Positions 3,412 to 37,233 of a stretch of 63,216 nt of DNA are shown piece by piece (position 1 is the first letter of the stretch; every line of letters starts with the position of its first letter). The stretch spans positions 1 through 63,216 of the forward strand of contig JAMIQH010000153.1 of the NCBI GenBank assembly GCA_035914695.1. The letters run 5' to 3'. The notes below the pieces were generated by a model. It did not search any database and had not been told where the DNA came from. It saw only the letters and a program-made list of their open reading frames with translations. This DNA is from Bacteroidota bacterium (GTDB lineage Bacteria > Bacteroidota > Ignavibacteria > SZUA-365). Made by a program: the position numbers and the translations under genes.

Positions 3412-4978
3412 GGCTTTCCGCCTTGTCCAATTCGCGCTGCAGCGCCGCGGCGAGCCGCTGCTCGATGGCAATGCATTCGTCCTCGTAGAAATGCTTCTCG
3501 CCCTGATACGGCAGCAGCTTCTCGATGGTGTTCTCCGTTTCGTCGTAGCGCGCGAGATACACGCGGTCCATCCAGTCCATGTTGCGGCCTTCGTTGAATT
3601 TCAGCGCGAACACGGTTTCGCCATTCACCTCGGCGGTGCCGAGCAGGGAAATCTTGCCCGCGGACGAGGTCATGGTGATGTAGCGCGAAGGACGATTGAC
3701 CGAGGAGAGCGACTTGTACACCTTGCTGAAAATCTTTTGGATGTCGGCCAGCGGCGCGGTGAAGTAATGATGCTCGCCGGTGGGACGCGCGCAATACATG
3801 GAGTGGAAACCCACGCCGAGCATGCCGAGCAGATTGCCGAGATCGATCCAGTTTTGCGCCGAGCGCTCGATGTCCACCGCACCATCGGGATGGGTGAACA
3901 AGCTGATGTGCTTCATGATCGGACTCTGGCTTTTAATCGCCACGCCGTGCGCCTTCAAACGACGAATGGCGGCGATGGTGCCGGGATTGAGGATGTCGCG
4001 CGGCGTCGAGAGATGCGCCACCCAGATCACCTGCACGCCACTGTCCACGCACTGGCGCAACAGGGCGAGAATGTTCTCGAATTCATCGGTGAGTAACAGC
4101 TCCGGGTGGAAGGTCAACGCGCGCGAGCCGAAGCGCAGCGTGCGCACATGCGCCAGCGTCGGATCGGACAGCAGCGGCAGCACGTACTCGGCGAGGCGGT
4201 CGTAATGAATGAAGCCGCCGTCGCCGCCCGTGATCAAGATGTCGGTGATCTCTTTGTGGCGGCGCAGGTAGTGGTGCAACTGCGCAACGTCGTCCTGCAC
4301 GAACATATCCTCGTCGCCACGCACCTGCGCATGACGGAAGCAGTACGTGCAGAAAGCGAAGCAATTCTGCGTGAAGCGGTCGAAGATCAGGGCGATGGGT
4401 GGATACTTGTGCTGGCAGCCCTGGAGAATTTCCAGATGGCCGTCGTCGTTGAGAAACCACGGCTTGTTCAGCATCTGCTTGCCGTCGTGCGGATTGGTCT
4501 TGCGCGTGTATTCCTCGACCACGAGGCGGCGATCGTCGTCCGTCGCGGCGTCGAGGTAGCGCTGCACGTCATCGTGCGGAATCATGCCCGGCTGCGGGAA
4601 TACGAGCTGATACATGGTATCCTGCTCGTAGTTGGTCCAGTCGATGGAATTCAGCACGTGCTTGGTGGCGAGGAAGCGATAGACCTCGATGAAGAATTCG
4701 CGCTCCTTGATGTCACCGAGTTCGATGCCGTTGCTTGCGAGCACGGCCACAATTTCCCGAAAACCTGCAAGACCGTTGTAGTAGGTTTTCCCGGAAAAAT
4801 AGTAGTCATCGGTGCGGAAAAAGCGCGAGTGTTGCGGGAAATTCAGATGCAGGCGATGCATCAGCGCAGGAGGGAGCAGATGCTCGTCCTGAATAATGCG
4901 GCGGGTTTCATCGCTGAAGTGGTAGCGCGTGAGCATGGCGTCGACATCGCGGGCGTGAATGGCTGGGCTTTCAATCAT
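3401..4978 (-). CDS. KamA-family radical SAM amino-acid 2,3-aminomutase-like protein (about 525 aa)
   Basis: ORF 3401..5071. Contains the CFAFCTYCFR CxxxCxxC cluster and ITGGDGG. Start taken at MIESPAIHARD (ATG 4978). Its 3' end overlaps the ctfA-like start by 11 nt. Confidence 0.8.
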   Translation of the reverse strand: MIESPAIHARDVDAMLTRYHFSDETRRIIQDEHLLPPALMHRLHLNFPQHSRFFRTDDYYFSGKTYYNGLAGFREIVAVLASNGIELGDIKEREFFIEVYRFLATKHVLNSIDWTNYEQDTMYQLVFPQPGMIPHDDVQRYLDAATDDDRRLVVEEYTRKTNPHDGKQMLNKPWFLNDDGHLEILQGCQHKYPPIALIFDRFTQNCFAFCTYCFRHAQVRGDEDMFVQDDVAQLHHYLRRHKEITDILITGGDGGFIHYDRLAEYVLPLLSDPTLAHVRTLRFGSRALTFHPELLLTDEFENILALLRQCVDSGVQVIWVAHLSTPRDILNPGTIAAIRRLKAHGVAIKSQSPIMKHISLFTHPDGAVDIERSAQNWIDLGNLLGMLGVGFHSMYCARPTGEHHYFTAPLADIQKIFSKVYKSLSSVNRPSRYITMTSSAGKISLLGTAEVNGETVFALKFNEGRNMDWMDRVYLARYDETENTIEKLLPYQGEKHFYEDECIAIEQRLAAALQRELDKAESHDQ

Positions 4979-23296: not shown

Positions 23297-24226
23297 ATGG
23301 AGGATACGATGAAGGAAGCAGGGAAGTGGACGACACAGGACATCCCCGATCAACAGGGTAAGATCATCATGGTTACCGGAGCGAGTTCGGGCATCGGCTT
23401 TGTGGCGGCGCGCGAACTCGCGGGGCGCGGGGCCCACGTCATACTCGCTGTGCGCGACGAGCGCAAGGGGGAAGCGGCCATGCGGCGCATTCGCGAAGCG
23501 CATGCGGACGCCTCGCTGGAATTGCAACTTCTGGATCTGGCCGACCTGCGCTCGGTGCGCGATGCGGCAGCGAATGTGCGCGCGCGGCATCCGCGTCTGG
23601 ACGTGCTGCTGAACAATGCCGGTGTGATGATCCCGCCGCTGACGCGCACCGCGCAGGGCTTTGAATTGCAGATGGGCGTGAATCACTTCGGACATTTCGC
23701 CTTGACACAGGCATTGCTCGATACGCTTGAAGCGGCGCACGCTGCGCGCGTGGTGACGGTGAGCAGCGGCATGCATAAAATGGGCCGCGTCAATCTCGAG
23801 GACATCCACTGGACGCGCCGCCGCTACAGTCCCTGGCGGGCCTACGGCGACAGCAAGCAGGCGAATCTTCTGTTCACGCTGGAACTGCAACGCCGCCTCG
23901 CCGCGAGCGCCTCGCGCTGCATCGCCGTGGCGGCGCATCCGGGGGTGAGCATGACCGAGCTGCAGCGGCATTCCTCCACGCTCGTGTGGATGAGCAAACT
24001 CATCGCGCACGATGTGGAAATCGCCGCGCTGCCCTCGTTGCGCGCGGCCACCGATCCCGGCGTACGCGGCGGTGATTATTATGGTCCGGGTAAAATGTTC
24101 GAGTTGCGGGGCACACCGGAGCGTGTGCGTCCCATGGCGCATGCGCGCGACGAGGCGCTAGCCGCGCGTCTTTGGCAGTTGTCGGAAGAGGCCACGGAGC
24201 GTATGGAAGCGCTGGCCGCGCACTGA
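23297..24226 (+). CDS. short-chain dehydrogenase/reductase (SDR) family oxidoreductase
   Basis: ORF 309 aa. VTGASSGIG nucleotide-binding motif and YGDSK (YxxxK) catalytic motif. Confidence 0.85.
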   Translation: MEDTMKEAGKWTTQDIPDQQGKIIMVTGASSGIGFVAARELAGRGAHVILAVRDERKGEAAMRRIREAHADASLELQLLDLADLRSVRDAAANVRARHPRLDVLLNNAGVMIPPLTRTAQGFELQMGVNHFGHFALTQALLDTLEAAHAARVVTVSSGMHKMGRVNLEDIHWTRRRYSPWRAYGDSKQANLLFTLELQRRLAASASRCIAVAAHPGVSMTELQRHSSTLVWMSKLIAHDVEIAALPSLRAATDPGVRGGDYYGPGKMFELRGTPERVRPMAHARDEALAARLWQLSEEATERMEALAAH

Positions 24227-24339
24227 TATCGGATACGGCGGTTGGCAATCTCGCCGCCCCGTTGTACCTTACCCTGATGAACACCGGGAGAGTAAATTCC
24301 CCGCGGTATACAGGGTTGTACAGTGGAGCATCAGGCTGC

Positions 24340-25653
24340 ATGTTGCATTGCATCGGAATTCGCAAAGAAACCAAAGACCACACCGAACGCCGCGTCCCGC
24401 TCGTGCCCGAGCAGGTGGCGCGCCTGCATCGGGATCACGGATTGCGCATACTCGTCGAGCCGATGGCGCATCGCATTTTCAGCGACGAGGAATTTCGCGC
24501 GGCGGGAGCCGAATTGACGGAGGATCTCTCCGACGCCAACATCATTATCGGCGTCAAGGAGATTCATCCCCGTTACATGCTGGACGACAAGGCCTATCTG
24601 TTTTTTTCCCACACCATCAAAGCGCAGCCCTACAACATGGGCATGTTGCGCTCCATGCTTGAGCACCGGCAGACACTGCTCGATTACGAACTCATCCGCG
24701 ACGAACGGAATCGCCGTCTGGTCTTTTTCGGCAACTTCGCCGGTCTGGCCGGCATGATCGACACGCTGTGGGCCCTGGGCAAGCGTCTCGACGCGCAGGG
24801 CATCGCTTCGCCGTTCTCGCGCATTCGCTACGCATCGGAGTATGGTTTGCTGGAGCACGCGGAGCAGGGTATACGCGAGGTGGGCGAAGTGATACGCCGC
24901 GATGGACTGCCTTCCGCGCTGGTGCCTTTCGTCACCGGCTTCACCGGCTATGGCAATGTGTCGAAAGGCGCGCAGTCGCTGTACGAGTTGCTGCCCGTCG
25001 AGCATATCGCCGCCGGCGATCTCGAGGCGTTCATGCGGGGCGGACGTTTTTCCGATCGCGTGGTGTACAGTGTGGAGTTCCGCGAGGAGGATTTGGTCGC
25101 ACGCATCGACGACTCAGCCGCGTTCGATCTGCAGGAGTACTACACGCATCCCGAGCGCTATCGCGGGGTGTTCGACGCCTATCTTCCGCATCTCAGCGTA
25201 CTCATCAACGGCATTTACTGGGACGAGCACTTTCCGCGCTTGCTTTCGCTGGACACGGCGCGCGCGCTGTGGGCGCAGGGCACGCCGCGGCTGCGCGCCA
25301 TCGGCGACATCAGTTGCGATATCGACGGCTCGGTGCAGCTCACCGTGAAGGGCACCACCTCCGACAATCCGGTGTACGTGCACGATCCGCTGACGGGCGT
25401 GGTGACGGACGGTTGGGAAGGGGAGCGTGGTCCGGTGATACTCGCCGTGGACAAATTGCCCACCGAACTGCCGCGCGAGGCGTCCATCGCCTTTGGCATG
25501 TCGCTCGAGCCCTTCATCCCCGCCCTTGCGCGCGCGGACTTCAGCCACACACTTGACGATATCGTATTGCCACCCGAGCTGCGCCGCGCATTGATCGCGC
25601 ACAGGGGAGTACTGACGCCGGATCATGCGCATTTGCAGGGGCATTTGCCTTGA
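24340..25653 (+). CDS. lysine-ketoglutarate reductase / saccharopine dehydrogenase-like (alanine dehydrogenase/PNT-fold) protein
   Basis: ORF 24172..25653. Start taken at MLHCIGIRKETKDHTERRVPLVPEQV (ATG 24340). The N-terminal pattern is typical of LKR/SDH-like enzymes. Confidence 0.65.
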   Translation: MLHCIGIRKETKDHTERRVPLVPEQVARLHRDHGLRILVEPMAHRIFSDEEFRAAGAELTEDLSDANIIIGVKEIHPRYMLDDKAYLFFSHTIKAQPYNMGMLRSMLEHRQTLLDYELIRDERNRRLVFFGNFAGLAGMIDTLWALGKRLDAQGIASPFSRIRYASEYGLLEHAEQGIREVGEVIRRDGLPSALVPFVTGFTGYGNVSKGAQSLYELLPVEHIAAGDLEAFMRGGRFSDRVVYSVEFREEDLVARIDDSAAFDLQEYYTHPERYRGVFDAYLPHLSVLINGIYWDEHFPRLLSLDTARALWAQGTPRLRAIGDISCDIDGSVQLTVKGTTSDNPVYVHDPLTGVVTDGWEGERGPVILAVDKLPTELPREASIAFGMSLEPFIPALARADFSHTLDDIVLPPELRRALIAHRGVLTPDHAHLQGHLP

Positions 25654-25680
25654 TCACTGTGTGAGTCCATCCGTGTGAAT

Positions 25681-25855
25681 ATCACAGTGCGAACGGCAGG
25701 GTTTTAAAACCACAGATTGCACAGATTTCACACAGATTAGCACGGATGGATCGTGGAAGGCTGCGGGGATCGGAGCGATACATAACAGCCGGGGAGAAAT
25801 CGCACGCTCGTTGTCGACAATCCAGCGTCTTATGCACCCTTGCGTCTTCGCGTTG
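25681..25855. repeat. dispersed intergenic repeat, family CACAGAT (copy R1)
   Basis: gttttaaaaccacagattgcacagatttcacacagattagcacggatggatcgtggaagg...gcgtcttatgcacccttgcgtc. Colinear with copies at 27385-27530 and 36205-36403. Confidence 0.85.
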
Positions 25856-25866
25856 TTCCCGCGCGA

Positions 25867-26568
25867 TCAACCGCGCAACACTTTCTTGTATTTCAGGAAA
25901 TAGCGCTTGAGGATATTCACAAGCGGCCGGGCCAGGCCAAGGGGTTGCAACACCACCATGCTCGCATGAAAGATGATGCCTGAGAGTGTTCTCAGCGTGG
26001 ACTCCGCGGGTTTGGGTGCGGTATCAATGTGCACATACATAATGGTCCAGTAGCTACCCTTTATGATGTGTTTCTCGCCCCAGTTGTATCGATCGAAAAA
26101 GTTGCTCGTGATATAGGTTTGATGAATTTCCAGCGGATTGCCGTAGGTTTCCTCCTGGAAAATATCATGAAGTGGACAAATGATAATGATGTGTTTGAAG
26201 GTGCGATGACACTGCTGTATTACCGCGTGGATATCGGAGGGCTTCAAATGTTCCAGAACGTCGCCGAAGATTGCCACATCATACATCTGCGCGTTCTTGC
26301 GCACCCAGTCCTGAAGCAGCGCATGGTGCACTTCATCATACGGGCCTTCATTGCGGAGCATGTTGGCTGTGTTTTCCGAGCCCTCCACGGCCACGAGACG
26401 GACGTCGCTTTGAAGCAGCTCCCGTGCTATTCTCCCGTTTTTCCCGCCTCCGGCGCCAAAATCGACGATGCGAGCAGGCCGCAATGCCTCAAGTTGCTGA
26501 GCGAGAATGTAGTCGCAATACGACACACTGCTTCCGAATTGCTGTTCCACGGTATCCTGGTCTGACAT
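25867..26568 (-). CDS. class I SAM-dependent methyltransferase
   Basis: ORF 233 aa. IVDFGAGGGKNG (motif I) and VAIFGDVLEHLKP. Visibly lower GC than the surrounding core genes. Confidence 0.75.
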   Translation of the reverse strand: MSDQDTVEQQFGSSVSYCDYILAQQLEALRPARIVDFGAGGGKNGRIARELLQSDVRLVAVEGSENTANMLRNEGPYDEVHHALLQDWVRKNAQMYDVAIFGDVLEHLKPSDIHAVIQQCHRTFKHIIIICPLHDIFQEETYGNPLEIHQTYITSNFFDRYNWGEKHIIKGSYWTIMYVHIDTAPKPAESTLRTLSGIIFHASMVVLQPLGLARPLVNILKRYFLKYKKVLRG

Positions 26569-26704: not shown

Positions 26705-26847
26705 CTTGTCCGCATACTATTGGCGAATCGGGTAATATTGTGCGCAATATATCGCTTCCTTTGCAGGGGAGCAAACAGAGCATCAAGACATAGTTTCAAA
26801 ACCACAGATAGCACAGATATCACACAGATTAGCACAGATGGATCGTG
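26705..26847. repeat. 143-bp direct repeat, left copy (contains a CACAGAT module; copy R2)
   Basis: cttgtccgcatactattggcgaatcgggtaatattgtgcgcaatatatcgcttc...gtttcaaaaccacagatagcacagatatcacacagattagcacagatggatcgtg. Near-identical to 36120-36262. Confidence 0.9.
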
Positions 26848-26892
26848 GAAATCCACGATGATCCGATGAAGAAGCCACGAAGTGTCCTTGTG

Positions 26893-27324
26893 TTACGCCA
26901 CCGAGGTCGAGCCATAGCGCCGCAGCGCCTCTGTGGCCGCCAGAGAGATGAGCGCTTCGAGGACATGGACGTCGATGTCTGCGAGGCGCTTGAAGTAGAG
27001 GCAGGACTTGCTCATCTTGTGCTTTCCGAGCGTGGACAGGAGTTCCGCTTGTCCGGGATCGTCCACGCCGAGGTAGACCACGAGTTCCCTGCCGCGGATG
27101 GCGAAAGCCGCGAGTGGCGCCTCGCCCGAGTGTCCGCTCGCATATCTGTAGGTGTAGGAGCCGAAGCCCACGATGCTCGGTCCCCACATGTGCGGCTGTT
27201 GTCCCGTCACACGCTCGCATATCGTCATGATGGTTCTGCAATCCTCGATTTGCCCGGCGGTGCCTCTTGCCGCGAGGTACTCCTCGACACTCGCGCCGGT
27301 GGGTTGGGTTTTTGGAGTTGGCAT
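26893..27324 (-). CDS. DUF1801 (YdhG-like) domain protein
   Basis: ORF 143 aa. GASVEEYLAA...MWGPSIVGFGSYTYRYASGHSGEAPLAAFAIRGRELVVYL is the typical DUF1801 pattern. Confidence 0.75.
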   Translation of the reverse strand: MPTPKTQPTGASVEEYLAARGTAGQIEDCRTIMTICERVTGQQPHMWGPSIVGFGSYTYRYASGHSGEAPLAAFAIRGRELVVYLGVDDPGQAELLSTLGKHKMSKSCLYFKRLADIDVHVLEALISLAATEALRRYGSTSVA

Positions 27325-27384
27325 GGGGGCCTCTCTGAATTGGAATGCTGTGCTACAGAGCGCAGTATGCGTGTGAACGACAAC

Positions 27385-27530
27385 GTTTCAAAACCAGGGT
27401 GCGAACAATGTAGTTTCAAAACCACAGTGCGAACAATGTAGTTTCAAAACCACAGATAGCACAGATATCACACAGATTAGCACAGATGGATCGTGGAAGG
27501 GTGCGGGGAGCGGAGCGAATACCTGTCTCT
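27385..27530. repeat. dispersed intergenic repeat, family CACAGAT (copy R3), with internal 28-bp duplication
   Basis: gtttcaaaacc starts at 27385, 27413 and 27441. The last is followed by cacagatagcacagatatcacacagattagcacagatggatcgtggaagggtgcgggg, as in R1. Confidence 0.85.
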
Positions 27531-27561
27531 CTGTTGGGTTCGTTTTTGGGCGAATGATGCT

Positions 27562-30500
27562 TTACACCGCTCCGCCCACACCTTTGAATTTCTCCACGAA
27601 TGCGGTGATTTTCTGGAAGACGGTCTGCTTCGTGATCAAGTATTGCGGGTTCAGCGGGCTCATGCGGGGCAGGATGGCGTTGAGTTCGGTGCCGCTGTCG
27701 CTCGCGAATTCGCGTTTTAATGAGGCGGTGATATAGCGCCTGGCAGCTTCCGCATTCAGGTTCTCGGCGGTGATCAACTCTTGCGCTTCCCGCTGCTGTT
27801 CGGCCCGGGCAAAGGTGAAAAAGGCATCAATCACACTGGCCTTGTCGCCAATGTTATCGAGATCGGTCTGGTTGATGAAATCGACGAGCAGGCTTTCCTT
27901 GGCTCGGTTGCCAAGACTGGCGCGAATGACGCGTCGTACTTCGTCAACCAGCCCCGACTTGGTCCTGATGTTCTTGTTGTGCTCGAAGATCAGTTCCAAT
28001 ATGTAGTCGAGATTGATTTCCTGAGACTTCAGGAGGTCGACCTCGAATACCACGTCATCCCAGTCGATGCTGGATGTATCCTTGTCATCGGAGGATTTCT
28101 GGCGGCGCAGCCATTCGCGCACGTCGTTGTAGGTGGAGCGGTAATCCTGGATGATTCGTTCCGACGGTATCGTTATCGCCTGCAGTTCGGCAAGGTCTTC
28201 ATCGCTCAGATAATGCTGCGTCTTGAATGCCTCCACCGCCGCAGGGTCGTTCATGTCAACGCTTTGAAGTGCTTTCAGACTGGCAAATTCATCGAAATGC
28301 TGTAGCACATTCTCGATGCGTAAATATTCTCCGAAGAGCTTCACAAACGCCTTCTTGTCCGCTTCCTTCTCGATGGCGGTGGGATCGGGAAAGCGCTGCT
28401 CCAACTCCCGCACCACATCCATATAACCGCGCCGCGCTTCACCGGTCAGTACATCGGTAAAGCCGTCCATGTATTCCTTGTAGCTCTTCTCCAGCACCAC
28501 GTTCTTTGTGTTCCTGTCGCCAAACAATGTGATGGCGTCGATGGTGGCTTGCTCGAGGTCACGGAAGGTGACGATGTTGCCAAAGGTTTTCGTGGCGTCA
28601 AAAATGCGGTTGGTGCGCGAATATGCCTGCAGAAGGCCGTGGTAACGCAGGTTTTTGTCGACGAACAAGGTGTTCAGCGCCGGCGCATCAAAGCCGGTCA
28701 GGAACATGCCCACCACGATCAGCAGGTCGATTTCCTTGGCCTTCACCTGCTTGGCGAGATCACGGTAGTAATTCTGGAAGCCGTTGCTGTCCACGCTGAA
28801 ATTGGTTTTGAACAGCGTGTTGTAATCCGCTATGGCCGCGCTCAAGAACTCCTTGGCGCTGCTGTCCATGGCGGAGACTTCGAAACTTTCGTCCTGTATG
28901 TCGCCGACAGCATCCTGTTCCTCGTTCGCGGCAAACGAGAAGATGGTGGCTACCTTCAACGGCTTGTCGCTGCCCTTCTGCAATTCCCGGAAGGACTCGT
29001 AGTACAGCTTGGCGGCGTCGACGCTGCTGACCGCGAACATGGCATTGAACCCTTGATTACCAGCCTGGAGGCGGCGTGTTTTCTGTCGATAGTGTTTCAG
29101 GATGTACTGTGTGATTTCGCGTATGCGGTCGGGGTGCAACAGCGCCTGCTTGTTTTCCGCCGCGCTGAGCGTTTTCTCGTTGGACTCGCTCTCAATCGCC
29201 TTGAACTGTGGACGTACATCGTTGTAGTCCACCTTGAACTTCAGCACCTTCTCATCGCGTATGGCGTCGGTGATCACGTAGGAATGAAGTTCGTTGCCAA
29301 ACACGCTGGCTGTGGTTTCGGCGCCCAACGCGTTCTGCGGGAAAATGGGTGTACCGGTGAAGCCGAACTGATAGAACTTCTTGAACTTCTTTTTGAGGTT
29401 TCTCTGCGCTTCGCCAAACTGGCTGCGGTGACATTCATCAAAAATGAACACCACCTGCTTGCCGTAAATGGGCAGATCGCCTTCGCTCTTCATCAGGTTG
29501 TTGAGCTTCTGGATGGTGGTGACGATGATCTTGTTGTCGTCCTTGTCCAGATTGCGCTTGAGACCGGCGGTGCTGTCCGAACCATTGACGCTGTCCGGTG
29601 AGAATCGCTGGTATTCCTTCATGGTTTGGTAATCAAGATCCTTGCGGTCGACCACGAAAAACACTTTGTCGATGAAGTCCAGCTCGGTGGCCACACGCGC
29701 CGCCTTGAAGCTGGTCAGGGTTTTGCCCGAACCGGTGGTGTGCCAGATATAACCGCCGCTTTCCGTTTTGCTCCAGTTTTTCGTCTGCCATGCGCTGTTG
29801 ATTTTCCACAGAATGCGCTCGGTGGCGGCAATCTGATAGGGACGCATGACCAACAGGGTGTTGCTGACATCGAATACCGAATAGTGCAGCAGTACGCTGA
29901 GCAGCGTCCTTTTCTGGAAAAAGGTGGCGGTGAAGTCCTTCAGGTCCTTGATCAGCGAGTTATCCGATTTCGCCCAATTCATGGTGAAGTCGAAGCTGTT
30001 CTTGCCGCGCTGCGTGGTGTTGGCGAAATACCGACTGTCGGTGCCGTTGGAGATCACGAACAGTTGCAGATACTTGAACAGGGAATGCTCGCTGTTGAAG
30101 CTCTCCTTGCTGTAGCGATGCACCTGATTGAAGGCCTCACGAATCGCCACGCCGCGTTTTTTCAGTTCCACCTGCACAAGAGGCAGACCGTTGACAAGAA
30201 TCGTCACGTCGTAGCGATTGGCGTGGCTGCCCGTCTGCTCGAACTGCTTGATCACCTGCAGCCGGTTTCGGGCAATGTTCTTCTTGTCCAGCAGATAGAT
30301 GTTCTGTATATGGCCATCGTCAAAGACAAAGTCGTGAATGTAATCGTCGTGAATCTTGCGGGTTTTTTCCACGATGCCATCACTGGGCTTGTCCAGCCAG
30401 GTTTCCACAAAGCGCAGCCACTCGCCGTCGGAGAATTGCATCTTGTTCAGCGTCTGCAACGCGTTGCGCACATTGGCCAGCAACTTTTCCGGCGTGTTGA

Positions 30501-30660
30501 GGTCGGGCGCGTATTCGTAGCCCTGATTCTTCAAGTCCTGAATGAACTCCCGCTCCAGATCCGATTCGCTCTGGTAACGCTCGTTGGCTTTCCATTCCCT
30601 GACGTATTTGTCCAGGACAATGAAGTGTTTCGATTCGGCAATGGCCTTGTAGTCGCTCAT
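27562..30660 (-). CDS. hsdR: type I restriction endonuclease subunit R
   Basis: ORF 1032 aa. HTTGSGKT Walker A and [13 protein letters not shown] box. N-terminal nuclease-region and C-terminal sequences are typical of HsdR. Confidence 0.95.
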
Positions 30661-30760
30661 TCTTCGGGGTCCTTGCTTTGCAGCTCGTTTTTAGAGTCCG
30701 GTCCAAATCGGCTTCGATGCGTTGCTGCCTGTTGAACGTTTCACCTCAGTCAGCGGCGTT

Positions 30761-31111
30761 TCATGCAGTCGGCATTCGGCGGATTGAGCCGTAATCCAAC
30801 GGGATCACCGCGTCCAGGTTGTAGTACTTGACCTGCTGGGTCTGGGTGAGGCCTACCACGGCGCCGTGCTCAGTGCTTGTTTCCAAAATGGAAACAACCA
30901 CTTCTTCCACCAATTCGCCACTGTCGAAGATGTTCTTCAGATGCCTGGAAATGGCCGGGACGCCCACACCAAACAACTCCGCCATGCGCTTTTGGGTCAG
31001 CCAGATGCTCTCATTGCTGAGCAGGACTTCGACTTTGACTGCGCCGTTGGGCGCGGTGTGGAGCAGGAATTCGGTGCTTTGATCGCGTAATGTGATATTT
31101 GGTCGGGGCAT
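30761..31111 (-). pseudogene. rhuM-family (virulence protein RhuM-like) gene remnant, frameshifted and truncated
   Basis: MPRPNITLRDQSTEFLLHTAPNGAVKVEVLLSNESIWLTQKRMAELFGVGVPAISRHLKNIF...KYYNLDAVI matches the N-terminal third of RhuM-type proteins, which are usually about 330 aa. Near 30803 the expected ISVGYRLN continues in another frame (..VGLRLNP..) and stops. Only about 100 bp remain before hsdR. Confidence 0.65.
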
Positions 31112-31305
31112 AGTTCGATCCCTCAATTTTGAGTATCCAGGGATTGTTTCCCCATAGGTGTGGTACTGGTAGTTGCTAGATTCAACTGATTGGTGACATG
31201 AACTATTTCACTCTCGTCTTGCTTCAGATTGTCTCAAATATCCATGTTTCTGGGTAGGAATGATCGTCAATGCACATTGACTCAAATTGCGGGAGTATGG
31301 CGTAA

Positions 31306-32538
31306 TCATCCAGTTATTACTTCCGGTTGCCTGAAATGATAGGTCTTGATCAAATGGTCTACCAATTCGCTTAGTCTAGCTTTGTCATTGTCCTCGATTT
31401 CAGCCATTTCTTCGCCTGCATGGGCTGAGTGACTGGATAGGTTTAGGAGTCTGTTTCCAAATGGGTCAGGGTTCCCATTGCTGGTTTGTGGAAGAAGAGC
31501 CGACCAGTTGTTGTAGCCTAGGAACGTAGCCATCTTCTCCAAAATGTTTCGTGTGAAATTAAAATGGTACTTCCTGATTTGCCCATTATTAAGTGCAACT
31601 TGGAGTTCGGATAAGAGAAACAGGTGGTACGAGAATGGCGAGTCGGTTGGCTGTGTTGCCAGATTAAACAGACCGTCTTCATTTTTTTCTAATCGATATT
31701 TCTGAAAAGCTTTTTTTGGGCTATATGTCTTCGTCCGTGTGCCATCCTTCTGTGTTTTGTAGGCCGGGTTGCTAAACTCGTTGCAGAGGATATTGTAAAA
31801 AAGCGGGCTGTGTGTTGTGATTACAAAATTAAGCTTGGAATTGCTCGACTTAACCAGCGTCGCCAGGTCGATGGCTAGGTCAATTAAATGATTGTCGTCG
31901 AGCGAACTAACGGGGTCGTCAATAAACACGTATTCTAGAAGATCAAAGTCGTTGCTTCCGTGTTCATTCTTGTCGGATTCCTCAAGAACAGACACCACCT
32001 CTTGAATAAGTGTAAAAAAAATGCTCCATATAAAACTCCTCTCCTCGCTTTTAGATACTTTTAAATTGCCTGTTCGTTCAGTGCCAGTGTCAAGAGAGAA
32101 AATTACTTCCGGGTAGGTTTTTTCACCTGTCCTCTTCGTACCTACAACTACATCTTTCTCTTGAAATCGTGCAGATAGTTTGTCGTTTGTATAACGCTGA
32201 AATGTGTTAACGATATCTATTTCGCCGCGTACACGCAAAATCCAGTCAGTGAATGAATTCGGTTGGATTTTTAATTTTGGCTCGATGTCTTGCTCCAAGT
32301 CGTTATCCCAGTAGAACAAGTCTTCGGTAAATGCGTTGTAATAGAGGATGATGTTGCGTGACGACTGGGGAAGATCGGCTGCTTCATCGCCTTCTCCACT
32401 ATCGGCTTTGGAGGCTATCAGTCGCTTGAACTCTCGTGAGAGACGAGTTTTTCCCACGCCATTGAAGGCGTAGATTATCTGCACTTTCTTGTTGGCATCT
32501 TTTAGCTGTTGTGCGATTTCCGGTAGCGTCTTGCCCAT
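31306..32538 (-). CDS. AAA_13-type ABC-like ATPase, PrrC-like anticodon nuclease candidate
   Basis: ORF 410 aa. Walker A AFNGVGKT, signature-like VSKSEER, Walker B/D-loop YVFIDDPVSSLD and H-loop ITTHS. The C-terminal region has RNILE (RxxxE) and SSHS about 36 residues later. The gene sits between hsdS and hsdR as prrC does in E. coli and starts 1 nt after the hsdS stop. It is the most AT-rich gene in the window. Confidence 0.65.
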   Translation of the reverse strand: MGKTLPEIAQQLKDANKKVQIIYAFNGVGKTRLSREFKRLIASKADSGEGDEAADLPQSSRNIILYYNAFTEDLFYWDNDLEQDIEPKLKIQPNSFTDWILRVRGEIDIVNTFQRYTNDKLSARFQEKDVVVGTKRTGEKTYPEVIFSLDTGTERTGNLKVSKSEERSFIWSIFFTLIQEVVSVLEESDKNEHGSNDFDLLEYVFIDDPVSSLDDNHLIDLAIDLATLVKSSNSKLNFVITTHSPLFYNILCNEFSNPAYKTQKDGTRTKTYSPKKAFQKYRLEKNEDGLFNLATQPTDSPFSYHLFLLSELQVALNNGQIRKYHFNFTRNILEKMATFLGYNNWSALLPQTSNGNPDPFGNRLLNLSSHSAHAGEEMAEIEDNDKARLSELVDHLIKTYHFRQPEVITG

Positions 32539-32539
32539 G

Positions 32540-33787
32540 TTATGTCGTCTCCTCTTCAGGTTTTGGGAAGTTGAACAGCATATCGCGGTAATACTCGTAT
32601 TGCTTTTTGCGCAGTGCGATTTCGCGGGGCAAGCCCTCGGTGAGGGAGTTGGTCAGAGCGTCGAACGTGTCGAGTATGGCGACGATGCGGGCTTGTTCGG
32701 CGAGGGATTTCTGAGGGTCATAGGCATATGGAATCGGGAGCTTGAAGCTCTTTATGATGCTTGAGTTGAGGTCGCCTCTGGGACCCTGTCCTAGTGACTT
32801 AATGTTTTCATAATTAAAACTCACCCAATGAAAAACATAGCGAGATAACGCCTTGGCGCTGTCTACTTCCAGGCAGCCACAGTGCTGATTGGTTGTTAAA
32901 GGAATTTTATTGATCGCTGACCTGCCTGCCGTGGCGCCAGAGATCGCAATTATTACGCAATTCGCAGGAATCCACTTTGCTGCCGACTGCTCCAGGGCTG
33001 CCTGAGTTATTTTTACTTCAGTTCTCTCGATATCGGAAAACTTGACCTCTTGTGTTCTTAGCCATGGAATATCGCCTCCTTCATAGTACTTCGGCTCTCC
33101 GGCTGTAGGGGTTCCGCCTGAATGCCATTTTTTTGTAACATCCCCCAGCGTTTTCCAGGCTACATCTCCTAATTCAAAACTCAACAACCGGTCGCGATAG
33201 TAATTGTATTGTTTTTTACGAGCGGTCAGCTCGGCGGTCAGCTCGGCGGTCAGCTCGGCGGTCAGCTCGGTAAAGGCGTCAAGAATGCGGACGATTTCGG
33301 CCTGGATTTCGAGGGATTTTTTGGGGTTCTCGGGGCAGGGGATGGGGATTCCAAACTTTTCGGTATCAGGGATTGCAATTTGCGGCATTTGCATCTTGCC
33401 GCCAATACTCTGGAAATGGGGTTCGTACAGTTTTAGAAAATGGTAAACATACTTGATATGGATAGCCTCGTTGCTTGAATGGTACGACCACATTTCATTC
33501 TTGTGTGAGAACGGTATGTCGCAATATTCAAATTCAATTACGCCACGAGATTTAACAATAATCGAAGCTTCGCAATTTATATCCTTGGCTGGTATGTCGT
33601 CGAAATCAACAAAGGCGACGGTTTTACCCCCCGCGAAGATTTTTACCGGAGCGCCATCTTTATGAAGCTCTTTCATCTGACCTGCGGTGATTTTTGTGCC
33701 TTTGGTTCGAACAAGCATCTCACCGAGTGGCTTCCATTGAACCTCGACCCCGTCCAACAGCTTCGCCAGAAAAGGAAGTTGACTCAC
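32540..33787 (-). CDS. hsdS: type I restriction-modification specificity subunit S (type IC-like)
   Basis: ORF 415 aa. Two TRDs separated by the central conserved region LDAFTELTAELTAELTAELTARKKQYNYYRDRLLSF. The C-terminal conserved region is LDTFDALTNSLTEGLPREIALRKKQYEYYRDMLFNF. GTG start lies 2 nt after the fic stop. Confidence 0.9.
   Translation of the reverse strand: MSQLPFLAKLLDGVEVQWKPLGEMLVRTKGTKITAGQMKELHKDGAPVKIFAGGKTVAFVDFDDIPAKDINCEASIIVKSRGVIEFEYCDIPFSHKNEMWSYHSSNEAIHIKYVYHFLKLYEPHFQSIGGKMQMPQIAIPDTEKFGIPIPCPENPKKSLEIQAEIVRILDAFTELTAELTAELTAELTARKKQYNYYRDRLLSFELGDVAWKTLGDVTKKWHSGGTPTAGEPKYYEGGDIPWLRTQEVKFSDIERTEVKITQAALEQSAAKWIPANCVIIAISGATAGRSAINKIPLTTNQHCGCLEVDSAKALSRYVFHWVSFNYENIKSLGQGPRGDLNSSIIKSFKLPIPYAYDPQKSLAEQARIVAILDTFDALTNSLTEGLPREIALRKKQYEYYRDMLFNFPKPEEETT
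33222..33269. repeat. 4 perfect tandem copies of the 12-bp unit gcggtcagctcg inside hsdS (encodes the TAEL/ELTA repeat)
   Basis: Directly visible at 33222-33233, 33234-33245, 33246-33257 and 33258-33269. Translated on the minus strand this gives ELTAELTAELTAELTA. Confidence 0.95.
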
Positions 33788-33789
33788 GG

Positions 33790-34395
33790 TTACAACTCCT
33801 CGGTCTTGAATTCGCTGTAGCCTTCGTAGAAATAACTCACGTCGATGCCTTTCATGAACAGGGCGCGGTCGTGGATGCGGTCGGTGAGGGCTTGCTTGAG
33901 CAGGAATTTGATTTCCAGGTCTTTCACCGGACTGCGCCGCATGGCGGAAAGATATTCCTCTTTATCGACGTGATTCCAGTCCACCACCTGCCTGAGTTCC
34001 TTTTTCAGCATGCAATCCAGCCAGATGCGGGTGGCCCGTCCGTTGCCTTCGCGGAAAGGATGGGCGACATTCATTTCCACATATTTTTCCACGATTTGCT
34101 CGAAGTTGCCTTGCGGCATGGCGTCGATATGTTTGAGCGAAGCGTGCAGATACATGACCGGGGCGAAGCGGAAATCACCTTTGGAGATATTCACGTCGCG
34201 GACAATTCCGGCGAAGTGGTAAATCTCGCCAAAAAGATAGGCATGGATGAACGCCAGCCCGGAAAATGTACCCACGTCCACCTTGTGGATGTCGCCCGAG
34301 TCGAAAAGCTGTCTGGCTTTTTGCTTGCTGATTCTTTCCTCGGCCTTGGCCAGCGCGATCTGCTCCGTGATGTTGAGCTTGTTTTCCGGAATCAT
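33790..34395 (-). CDS. fic: Fic-domain protein (AMP-transferase type), class III-like with C-terminal inhibitory motif
   Basis: ORF 201 aa. [12 protein letters not shown] is the canonical Fic motif HxFx(D/E)GNGRxxR. The C-terminal SYFYEG fits the inhibitory (S/T)xxxE(G/N) motif. Its ATG overlaps the hsdM stop (ATGA). Confidence 0.9.
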
Positions 34396-35942
34396 GTGGA
34401 CGCTCCTTCAATCTCGGCTACGATGGCGTCGATTTCCGCGCGCAGCTTGTCGATGTTGGCGACGGTGGTTTTCAGTTCGGCATTCAGTTGGGCAATGTCC
34501 ACGGTCTCACGGGTATCCCGGGCCTCCACATAGCTGCTCACCGACAGATTGTAGTCGTTGGCGGCGATGGCCTCGAAAGGAATGGATTGAGCAAAGTGAT
34601 CCACGTTCGCCTTGCTGTCGAACACGGCGAGGATGCGTTCGATGTGCTCGTCCAGCAGCACATTATTGTTGGTTTCCTTCTTGAACAGACCGCTGGCGTC
34701 GATGAACTGCGTGGTGGTGTCGCTTTTATGTTTGGACAGCACAAGGATATTCACTGCGATGGTGGTGCCATAAAACAGATTGGACGCCAGGGAAATCACC
34801 GTTTCGATGTAGTTGTTGTCGATCAGATATTGGCGGATTTTCTGCTCGGCGCCTCCACGGTAGAAAATGCCGGGGAAGCAGACGATGGCCGCGCGGCCTT
34901 TGCCGGAAAGATAGTGGAGCGCATGCAGCACGAAGGCGAAATCGGCTTTGGATTTGGGCGCGAGCACACCCGCCGGGGCGAAGCGTTCGTCGTTGATCAG
35001 CGTCGGGTCGTCGCTGCCTATCCACTTCACCGAGTAGGGCGGATTGGACACGATGGCGTCGAAGGGTTTGTCCTCGGCGAAATGCGGCTCCGTCAGCGTG
35101 TTGCCCAACTGGATGTTGAATTTGTCGTAGTTGATGTTGTGCAAGAACATGTTCATCCGCGCCAGGTTGTAGGTGGTGTGGTTGATTTCTTGCCCGAAGA
35201 AGCCGTCATCAATCAGATGGTCGTCAAAATGCTTTTTGGCCTGCAGCAGCAAGGAGCCCGAGCCGCAGGCGGGGTCGTAAATCTTGTTGACACCGCTTTG
35301 CGTGTGCATGGCGAGTCGTGCGATCAGCTTGGACACATGCTGCGGCGTGAAGAATTCGCCGCCCGATTTGCCCGCGTTGGCGGCATAGTTGGAGATGAGG
35401 AACTCGTAGGCGTCGCCGAACAGATCGATGTGGCTCGACCCGAAGTCGCCGAAGTCCAGTTCGGCCACGCCTTTGAGCACGGCGGCCAGGCGGGTGTTCT
35501 TGTCCTTGACGGTATTGCCCAGGCGGTTGCTGGTGGTATCGAAGTCGGCGAACAGGCCTTTGATGTCCTGCTCCGACGGGTAGCCGTTGGCGGAAGCTTC
35601 GATGGCGGCGAAAATCGTTGCCAGGTCGGTGTTCAAGCGTTCGTTGCTGTTGGCGTTGGCAGCCACTCTGGCAAAGTGCTGGCTGGGATAGATGAAATAG
35701 CCCTTGGTCTTGATGGCATCATCTTTGATCTCCGGCGTGATGACATTGTCGGCCATCTGAGCATAGCGGATGTTTTCGTCACCGCATTCGAAATACTCCG
35801 CGAAGTTTTCGCTGATGAAGCGATAGAACAGCGCACCGAGCACGTATTGCTTGAAATCCCAGCCATCCACCGCACCGCGGACATCGTTGGCGATTTGCCA
35901 GATCCGGCGTTGCAATTCGGCTCGTTGTTGGCTGCTGGTCAC
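34392..35942 (-). CDS. hsdM: type I restriction-modification DNA methyltransferase subunit M
   Basis: ORF 34392..35972. [10 protein letters not shown] (motif I) and SNPPYS (motif IV) are present. Likely start is GTG at 35942 ([23 protein letters not shown]), with GAGGAGAA upstream; the TTG at 35972 is less likely. Confidence 0.95.
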
Positions 35943-36119
35943 GTGGTTTTCTCCTCGGGACGTGGGTACCAAAGGTACCCGGTTTTTCTATGAAATCAGA
36001 ACTCCCTCATCTCGCACGGGATTGATCCATCAACGGACGCTGGGTGTACGCCTACGCGCAGCAGGTTGCCGGGGTGAAGAGTTCCCACTGTCGCAGCTCC
36101 GCGCCTTGTCTCACTTCCG

Positions 36120-36262
36120 CTTGTCCGCATACTATTGGCGAATCGGGTAATATTGTGCGCAATATATCGCTTCGGCTGCAGGGGTGCAAGCAGAGTATCA
36201 AGATATAGTTTCAAAACCACAGATAGCACAGATATCACACAGATTAGCACAGATGGATCGTG
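36120..36262. repeat. 143-bp direct repeat, right copy (copy R4)
   Basis: Near-identical to 26705-26847, with a handful of substitutions, mostly in the segment cttc[ct]ttt/ggctgcagggg[at]gcaa[ag]cagag[ct]atcaaga[ct]at. Confidence 0.9.
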
Positions 36263-36403
36263 CAAGGCGGCGAGGTTCGGAGTGAATGGATAACGCTCGG
36301 GGGAGAGATCGCACGCACGCTGTCGACGATGTAGCGTCTTATGCATCCTTGCGCCTCTGCGTTATGCGCCCTTGCGTTATGCGCCCTTGCGTTATGCGAC
36401 CTA
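36263..36403. repeat. tail of repeat R4, including a 15-bp tandem repeat (gcgttatgcgccctt, about 3 copies)
   Basis: gatcgcacgcacgctgtcgacgatgtagcgtcttatgcatccttgcgcc parallels R1 (25795-25850). It is followed by gcgttatgcgcccttgcgttatgcgcccttgcgttatgcga at 36359-36400. A related pair, cccttgcgttacgcgcccttgcgttacg, is at 53460-53487. Confidence 0.85.
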
Positions 36404-36474: not shown

Positions 36475-37233
36475 CTACCGCTGCCGACGGTCGAGCTGGT
36501 AGCGGCCGGCGGGGTCGATGCGGAGGGTGGGGATGCGGTGGGTGCGTTCGAAGCTGTCGTAGCCGGCTTTGAGCTGTGTCCAGAAATCGGCGAGGGTGGG
36601 CTGATCGAGGACGGTGTTGAGCAGACCGGCGAAACGGGCTTCGGTCATGCGTAGGGGAAAAATGTGCACGGGTATGCGTCGCTGGCCGGCGGCGCGGGCG
36701 CGCGCGGCGAGCAGGTAGATTTCGCGGATGGCGTCGTCCTCCACGGAGATGCAGCCGATGCTGACGCAGCGTCCGTGCATGTAAATGTCACCGCCGGGAT
36801 TGCCGCCGCGCGTGTGTATGCGGTCGGCGGCATTGGGATAATCGAGTCCGAGCGAAAGCAGGTAACTGCTCGTGGGATTGAAACGCGTGATGTTGTAGAA
36901 GCCCTCCGGCACTTGCATGTCGCCCTGCGCGCGCTTCGGTCCGAGGGTGCCGGAGTAACCGCAGAAGTCGTAGTCGCGGAACAAGGCCATGGTGTCGGCC
37001 GATCGTACCCAGAGTTCCACGCTGCGCTCGTCCTTGAACACGCGCAGATAGATGGCGCGGGGCGGAAAAACGAGTCCGCGCTCGCGAAAAGCGCGGCGCA
37101 GGGAGGTGTCCTTGTGATCGTGCGCGTATTTTACCCGGGTGAATCCGAGTTGCTGCCGGTAGAAGTCCTGTGCATGGCTTGCGGTGGTGGAGAGGAGGAG
37201 TATGCCCAGGAGGGCGGTGATGATCGGGCGCAT
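36475..37233 (-). CDS. L,D-transpeptidase catalytic-domain family protein
   Basis: ORF 252 aa. Signal peptide MRPIITALLGILLLSTTASHAQ. IYMHGRCVSIGCISVED resembles the YkuD-type HG...GC active site. Confidence 0.7.
   Translation of the reverse strand: MRPIITALLGILLLSTTASHAQDFYRQQLGFTRVKYAHDHKDTSLRRAFRERGLVFPPRAIYLRVFKDERSVELWVRSADTMALFRDYDFCGYSGTLGPKRAQGDMQVPEGFYNITRFNPTSSYLLSLGLDYPNAADRIHTRGGNPGGDIYMHGRCVSIGCISVEDDAIREIYLLAARARAAGQRRIPVHIFPLRMTEARFAGLLNTVLDQPTLADFWTQLKAGYDSFERTHRIPTLRIDPAGRYQLDRRQR

Follow-up and report, generated by a model that had tools for sequence, protein, structure and literature searches.

Highly similar non-coding segments situated upstream of unrelated genes within one genome have been described as putative mobile promoters (Matus-Garcia, Nijveen, van Passel 2012; commentary PMC3575422). 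These are partly tied to small repeat elements, and it has been proposed that they bring about rapid rewiring or activation of genes, including those acquired horizontally (PMC3575422). Promoters are also carried by dispersed repeats such as the Correia elements, ERIC, and REPIN (cited in PMC3575422). In enteropathogenic Escherichia coli (EPEC), a type I restriction-modification (R-M) defence island is repressed by RptR via palindromes over the -10 (PMC12255303), and integrative mobile elements exploiting Xer (IMEX), which the host XerC/D integrate at dif, for example Bacteroidetes microvirus proviruses, are flanked by dif-like sites (PMC3091885). Here, a pair of 143 bp repeats around a type I R-M locus in a Bacteroidota bacterium is compared with these systems. 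The stretch of DNA analysed, referred to as the window, is the entire 63,216 nt contig C153 of a 380-contig metagenome-assembled genome (MAG). The left repeat, R1, is at 26705..26847, between the stop codon of a DUF1801 gene and the start of a methyltransferase gene, and the right repeat, R2, is at 36120..36262, between the 3' end of a YkuD gene and the start of hsdM; the functional orientation inferred for both is that of the minus strand.

With a probability of about 0.55, the 143 bp sequence is a duplicated promoter/operator segment joined to a dispersed-repeat module, and not the attachment (att) scar of an excisable island. As for the putative mobile promoters, for which the threshold is 80% identity across 50 nt or more, the two copies are 95% identical over 143 nt and the genes downstream are not paralogous, being assigned to Methyltransf_23 behind R1 and to N6_Mtase/HsdM_N behind R2 (Pfam). 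The described promoters were sought between -150 and -50 from the start codon, however, whereas the copies here are at -137 to -279 (R1) and -148 to -290 (R2; -178 to -320 with the alternative hsdM start at 35942). The copies here are also clustered in one defence island rather than scattered, and they are conserved across two species, with an additional palindromic core that is invariant.

Two parts of the 143 bp repeat

There are no gaps in the alignment of 26705-26847 with 36120-36262, in which 136 of the 143 positions are identical (95.1%) in direct orientation, with two perfect blocks of 54 nt and 58 nt. This agrees with the original prediction of near-identity over the full length, and that the direct repeats bracket the whole type I R-M locus, as was also predicted, is confirmed by the alignment and the gene content. 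A repeat search lengthens the pair to 162 nt at 91%, to the left of which there are ~45 nt more of weaker similarity, with a 17 nt indel; the similarity ends short of both downstream genes. The R1 junction is crossed by contig L041, identical (100%) to window 28061-26115, and the R2 junction by contig L038, which matches window 36549-29461 at 99.8%. Both contigs are from independent metagenome assemblies, which demonstrates that the arrangement is real and not an assembly artefact. In a further contig, L028, the first 45 nt are unlike the window; as they have no counterpart in the genome, and coverage of the contig is 1.9x, this end was treated as chimeric.

The locus is present in only one relative, a sister Bacteroidota MAG (record DAOSDL010000006.1) with ~89% DNA identity to the window, where there is a third copy, R3. 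The middle copy in this genome, its R2, matches R1 of the window over 220 nt, a stretch that takes in a hairpin and the last 27 nt at the 3' end of the DUF1801 gene, so the unit originally duplicated was at least 220 nt long.

When the genome is searched with the 143-mer (BLAST), more than 60 matches are obtained, of which all but R1 and R2 span only positions ~84-143, while positions 1-86 match R1 and R2 alone. The left ~85 nt (26705..26790 in R1, the part called ext5, and 36120..36205 in R2, both on the minus strand) are present in two copies in this genome and three in the sister genome, exclusively at this locus. The right 60 nt, on the plus strand at 26788..26847 in R1, and with a long-form tail at 36203..36363 in R2, belong to a dispersed family whose unit has four CACAGAT motifs ~10 bp apart, the long forms often having conserved tails. 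Counted with a 40-mer consensus and up to 3 mismatches, there are 42 copies of this module in the genome of the window and 61 in the sister genome, with up to 72 BLAST matches in the former; none were found with the 40-mer in 21 other genomes of the family, so that the module is restricted to the species pair. In R3 the CACAGAT module is missing, and it is therefore joined to the promoter-like segment in two of three positions.

It is scarcely credible that the pair is simply two ordinary members of the dispersed repeat that flank the R-M locus by chance. The size of the family fits this explanation, as does the fact that CACAGAT copies separate most of the gene units of the region, but recurrence at many loci (42-72 copies) holds for the right 60 nt only. 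The left 83-86 nt, with their two copies, are found in no other member of the family, have a conservation pattern of their own, and are present without the module in R3. For the left part this explanation is already refuted, and with it the idea, which the original prediction had held open, that the 143-mer is no more than the dispersed repeat at full length.

Two further CACAGAT copies lie close by on the plus strand, a third local copy at 27436..27518, between hsdR and the DUF1801 gene, and a long form at 25673..25854, between the AlaDH-like gene and the methyltransferase gene. The long forms at 25673-25854 and 36180-36363 enclose the entire low-GC accessory region. The copies at 26800, 27448, and 36215 have a private variant, GATAGC...GATATC, that is not seen in any of the other listed copies (40-mer, up to 3 mismatches), which points to local duplication or gene conversion. 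Members of the family are found, for example, at window 25673-25854, 27340-27540, and 36180-36363, and at C150:5547-5662 elsewhere in the genome, and some members are full hairpins, in which the array is followed by its inverted copy. Between the tail of the R2 repeat and the 3' end of the YkuD gene, at window 36355-36400, a ~15 nt sequence (TTATGCGCCCTTGCG) occurs three times in tandem.

The promoter signature and the 35 nt core

The type of promoter used by the organism was learned from the 120 nt upstream of its own tRNA genes. TTG-N20-TATATT is present upstream of 11 of the 32 tRNA genes, the -10 mostly ending 9-17 nt before the mature tRNA, and has 72 matches on both strands of the genome, against 6.3 expected from composition; 36% of these matches are in space without a long open reading frame (ORF), compared with 3% of random positions. 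Both R1 and R2 are among these 72 matches, and in the 40 kb of the sister genome that were examined there are four matches, three of them being the three repeat copies. The promoter predicted in R1 (26746..26774, minus strand) has a -35 of TTGCTC (26774-26769), a 17 nt spacer, and a -10 of TATATT (26751-26746), from which transcription would start at ~26739, ~171 nt before the methyltransferase ATG. That predicted in R2 (36161..36189, minus strand) has a -35 of TTGCAC (36189-36184), the same spacer length, and a -10 of TATATT (36166-36161), with a start at ~36154, about 182-212 nt before hsdM.

The pattern TTGC(T/A/G)C-N17-TATATT, read on the minus strand, is common to the five copies. The three copies in the sister genome retain TTGC(A/G)C, the 17 nt spacing, and TATATT, even where the sequence of the spacer is altered. 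Each of the five copies is ~170-230 nt upstream of a minus-strand unit and is directed at its first gene. A promoter signature of the host type that is aimed at the downstream genes accounts for the conservation of the repeat better than an att scar would.

The tRNA promoters of this MAG have the form TTG(A/C)nn-N17-TATATT, with TATATTTG or TATATTG as a frequent extended form; there are examples on contigs C110, C158, C165, C246, and C300. TAnnTTTG is enriched upstream of the tRNA genes (6 of 32 regions, against a background of 0.4%). The promoter type thus appears to combine the sigma-70 motif with the Bacteroides-type -7 motif.

The locus resembles the Correia elements, ERIC, and REPIN in that a short, dispersed intergenic family, here CACAGAT, is physically attached to a segment resembling a promoter. 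The promoter-like part is outside the dispersed element here, however, and only 2 of the 72 sites that match the promoter pattern adjoin a CACAGAT array.

A 16 bp palindrome, ATATTG-TGCG-CAATAT, overlaps the -10 and the inferred start in R1 (26735..26750) and has the same position relative to the -10 in R2 (36150..36165); it is found at this locus alone in the genome, and its placement makes it a putative operator. It is part of a 35 nt core, CGAATCGGGTAATATTGTGCGCAATATATCGCTTC (26724..26758 in R1 and 36139..36173 in R2, minus strand), identified by comparison of the copies from the two genomes. This sequence, CGAATCGGG(T/C)AATATTGTGCGCAATATATCGCTTC, is constant in all five copies except for one T/C position in R1 of the sister genome. 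Within the core, R3 agrees with the other copies in 34-35 of 35 nt; in the flanks the agreement drops to 4-7 of 20 nt on the left and 14-15 of 30 nt on the right. Such a pattern suggests that the core has been kept by selection.

The core is present in two copies in the genome of the window and in three in the sister genome, at a single locus in each, and none of the other 21 family genomes has it. When 185,579 species genomes and a metagenome collection were scanned with a 21-mer, the only matches were contigs of the sister type, one short contig identical to the window, and one unrelated contig; there was no match in plasmid and phage collections. The unrelated metagenome contig (Ga0207906_1000042, L031), which has RuBisCO, CbbX, and CO-dehydrogenase-type genes, carries an identical 22-mer, TAATATTGTGCGCAATATATCG, at 4603-4624. 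It is 37 nt upstream of an xdhC-like gene on the minus strand, and its orientation with respect to that gene matches the arrangement at this locus. In so large a database the match may be accidental; alternatively, the motif may be a shared one of operator type.

In the closest regulatory parallel, the island repressed by RptR, there is likewise a type I R-M locus with embedded genes of toxin type and a palindrome over the -10 of the island promoter. In contrast, there is no rptR-like gene or regulator domain among the ORFs of this locus (Pfam), the motif is ATATTG-N4-CAATAT, and the core contains none of TAGCTA, TAGATA, TATCTA, and TATATA. The putative promoter/operator is also duplicated before several units here.

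Under the favoured reading, R1 and R2 would be paralogues of one intergenic "head" segment made up of two parts, the right 60 nt being a local variant of the CACAGAT repeat and the left ~85 nt, specific to this locus, carrying a minus-strand promoter of housekeeping type, TTGCnC-N17-TATATT, with an operator-like palindrome over the -10 and start. Each copy would front one co-oriented, horizontally acquired, low-GC transcription unit: R1 the methyltransferase gene, R2 the hsdM-fic-hsdS-prrC-hsdR(-DUF1801) genes, and R3 a block in the sister genome with TIR and ATPase-like proteins. The head would in this way drive, and possibly co-regulate, successive units of the defence island; a stretch no shorter than 220 nt would have been duplicated or recombined locally to produce the copies, while selection held the 35 nt core. 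Recombination between the direct copies would be a by-product that has not removed the R-M unit since the lineages split. If this is correct, the bacterium places acquired low-GC defence genes under a promoter of host type by copying one segment for each new unit, and the co-expression of several defence systems becomes a testable idea in an uncultured Bacteroidota lineage.

Several observations weigh against this. The promoter is a prediction, and a generic sigma-70 scan did not flag the site, since its -35 fits TTGACA at only 3 of 6 positions. The 5' untranslated regions implied are long (about 170-230 nt), and there are 24 invariant bases downstream of the -10, more than a plain promoter needs. 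No regulator gene is among the ORFs of the locus (Pfam), and the idea of an operator is not backed by a regulon, because a search found no copies of the palindrome elsewhere in the genome. Further, the unit duplicated in the sister genome includes the 3' end of a gene, which suggests a recombination event rather than "mobility" of a promoter.

Other features that might be shared by the predicted 5' leaders were considered and rejected. The leaders fold differently, and no better than shuffled sequences, and an ATG ~27 nt after the inferred start, which might have begun a leader peptide, is not conserved in the sister genome. There was no Rfam match in 25-38 kb of the window.

It is rather improbable that the core is more than a promoter and is itself the shared cis-site of a modular array of plugged-in defence operons, either as the operator for one trans-acting regulator or as the target of an unlinked recombinase. 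Were this so, it would mean co-regulation, cassette exchange between strains, or both, with no recombinase in cis.

Possible recombination between and at the copies

In the sister genome the order is the same as in the window (methyltransferase, R1, DUF1801 and the R-M genes, R2), and the proteins are 93% (hsdR), 93% (hsdM), 90% (methyltransferase), and 94% (AlaDH) identical. The presence of the same genes between R1 and R2, with a divergence like that of core genes, indicates that the interval has been stable since the lineages split. Within it, PrrC is present in the window only, the R-M operon of the sister genome being without it, and HsdS is just 45% identical while HsdM and HsdR are each 93% identical. 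The specificity subunit and the anticodon-nuclease add-on therefore vary inside the repeat-bounded interval.

There is an extra block of 5.9 kb (48% GC) between R2 and YkuD in the sister genome (L014 6985-12700, equivalent to C6:106985-112700 of that genome), closed by R3. It encodes a 540 aa ATPase-like protein with a weak ORC/CDC6-like hit, a 397 aa protein with a CAP12/Pycsar-type TIR domain, and three ORFs without a family hit; only the TIR protein is recognised by PADLOC. The block is a candidate for an undescribed defence system. That R3 closes this additional defence block links the repeat element to variable defence content. To the right of R2, the window and the sister genome are homologous as far as 36265, after which each has a sequence of its own; the difference is of the replacement type and is not a clean one-copy junction.

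RecA-dependent recombination in E. coli has a minimum of ~25-30 bp. The perfect blocks of 54 nt and 58 nt exceed this, as was originally supposed. The repeats might, then, be handles or scars of recombination in the first place, the modules having entered by Campbell-type or double-crossover recombination at a pre-existing copy, with the R-M locus open to deletion, duplication, or swapping via RecA and any promoter secondary. This explanation is unlikely, though several observations besides the direct repeats and their perfect blocks are in its favour. R3 bounds the extra defence block, the homology with the sister genome breaks at the edge of the repeat (36265), the duplicated segment of at least 220 nt spans the end of a gene as from single-crossover integration, and the three identical local CACAGAT copies hint at gene conversion. 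It is opposed by the content between R1 and R2, which is the same in both lineages and has diverged as core genes have, by the lack of a clean one-copy junction to the right of R2, by GC boundaries that do not coincide with R1 and R2, and by the contigs searched, none of which was found to have an empty site or circle junction. Sites that might reveal concerted evolution are few, with two of lineage type and one of orthology type.

An empty site, in which a single repeat copy joins the flanks, was one check named in the original prediction. No such single-copy junction was present in the genomes or contigs searched, the contigs from other samples having the occupied form only, and look-ups of the exact proteins led only to short contigs or contigs identical to the window, none with an empty site. 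In the more distant members of the genus there is no synteny and no methyltransferase gene, which is found only in the genome of the window and its sister, and these members give no grounds for inferring an empty site. The same content in relatives, which the prediction had named as telling against a module, is seen between R1 and R2 in the sister genome, the only relative in which it could be looked for. Of the predicted excisable or exchangeable module, what stands is that the repeats are direct and long and that R3 bounds a variable block, while the retention of the R1-R2 genes in the sister genome speaks against it. Excision or exchange through the repeats is possible; the direct repeats are a standing opportunity for the R-M unit to be lost or swapped, which strain-resolved metagenomics could measure.

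The similarity to att islands and IMEX lies in direct repeats at both ends of accessory DNA (136/143), tandem accretion of modules at one locus, and, for IMEX, the lack of a recombinase inside. The differences are that no integrase is inside or adjacent (Pfam search of the interval, with no PF00589 on the contig), an empty site did not turn up in the genomes and contigs searched, the repeats are unlike the dif of the host, and they do not sit on compositional boundaries. The genes from hsdR to hsdM have a GC content of 44-56%, consistent with the prediction that everything between the repeats is low in GC, but DUF1801 is inside at 62-63%, which is core-like, and the methyltransferase gene is outside at 52%. 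DUF1801 looks native. With no recombinase in cis and compositional boundaries away from the repeats, the suggestion of att-like scars is not upheld. On the favoured reading, the locus also warns against taking long direct repeats around a defence locus for att sites, since the repeat here has two parts, of which the conserved one looks regulatory.

The predicted absence of integrases and transposases inside was borne out for every long ORF (Pfam). PF00589 recombinases are absent from the 63 kb contig, the four hits in the genome all being on other contigs. The core could conceivably be the target of a recombinase encoded elsewhere, in which case the defence modules would be cassettes in a tandem array like that of an integron or IMEX. 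In favour of this, the core has sharp limits, does not vary, and is in part a palindrome; it is found at one locus in each genome and has multiplied there, and the modules are in tandem and co-oriented with no recombinase in cis. This is nonetheless very unlikely, as the contig has no integron integrase or other tyrosine recombinase, the core is without the XerD arm TTATGTnAAAT, the motif is limited to two sister lineages, and GC skew is too noisy to place the terminus. The cumulative skew of the window peaks near 44 kb, but across contigs it is weak and uninformative.

The core does contain an 11-6-11 imperfect palindrome, CGGGTAATATT-GTGCGC-AATATATCGCT, and for this reason it was tested as a dif-like Xer site, which would have a XerC arm, a 6 bp spacer, and a XerD arm, with modules of IMEX type. 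A canonical dif candidate, ACTTCTTATAATGAATATTATGTAAAGT, is at C307:328-355 in the genome of the window and on C13 in the sister genome, where the repeats are on C153 and C6, respectively. It is conserved in 14 of the 23 genomes of the family, single-copy in most, and matches the dif sequences of Firmicutes, Chlorobi, and Bacteroidetes in the supplement of PMC3025954. The core as a dif or IMEX site was rejected, since the canonical dif is on another contig in both genomes and the core, lacking the XerD arm, is unlike it; nor is the locus at the chromosomal dif, as would be expected for IMEX. In genome G009 there are two dif-like copies (C1:739-766 and C10:153859-153886), which could reflect an integrated Xer-dependent element or a second replicon.

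Genes of the locus

The type I R-M unit headed by R2 (27562..35972) and the genes around it are on the minus strand, with the exception of the AlaDH-like gene (24172-25653, plus strand), which is convergent with this block. From R2, the unit, as annotated with Pfam and PADLOC, has hsdM (34392-35972, starting at 35942 in another assembly), fic (33790-34395), hsdS (32540-33787), prrC (31306-32538; PADLOC PrrC, E = 2e-131), a small ORF (30761-31126), and hsdR (27562-30660). The DUF1801 gene (26893-27324; Pfam) is the last before R1, and R1 heads a gene for a class I S-adenosylmethionine (SAM)-dependent methyltransferase (25867-26568; Pfam). On the other side of R2 is the YkuD gene (36475-37233; Pfam).

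Directly after the DUF1801 stop codon, at window 26840-26865, there is a hairpin (ATCGTGGA-AA-TCCACGAT) without a T-run. This is the hairpin that, with 27 nt of the 3' end of DUF1801, is also found beside the middle copy in the sister genome.

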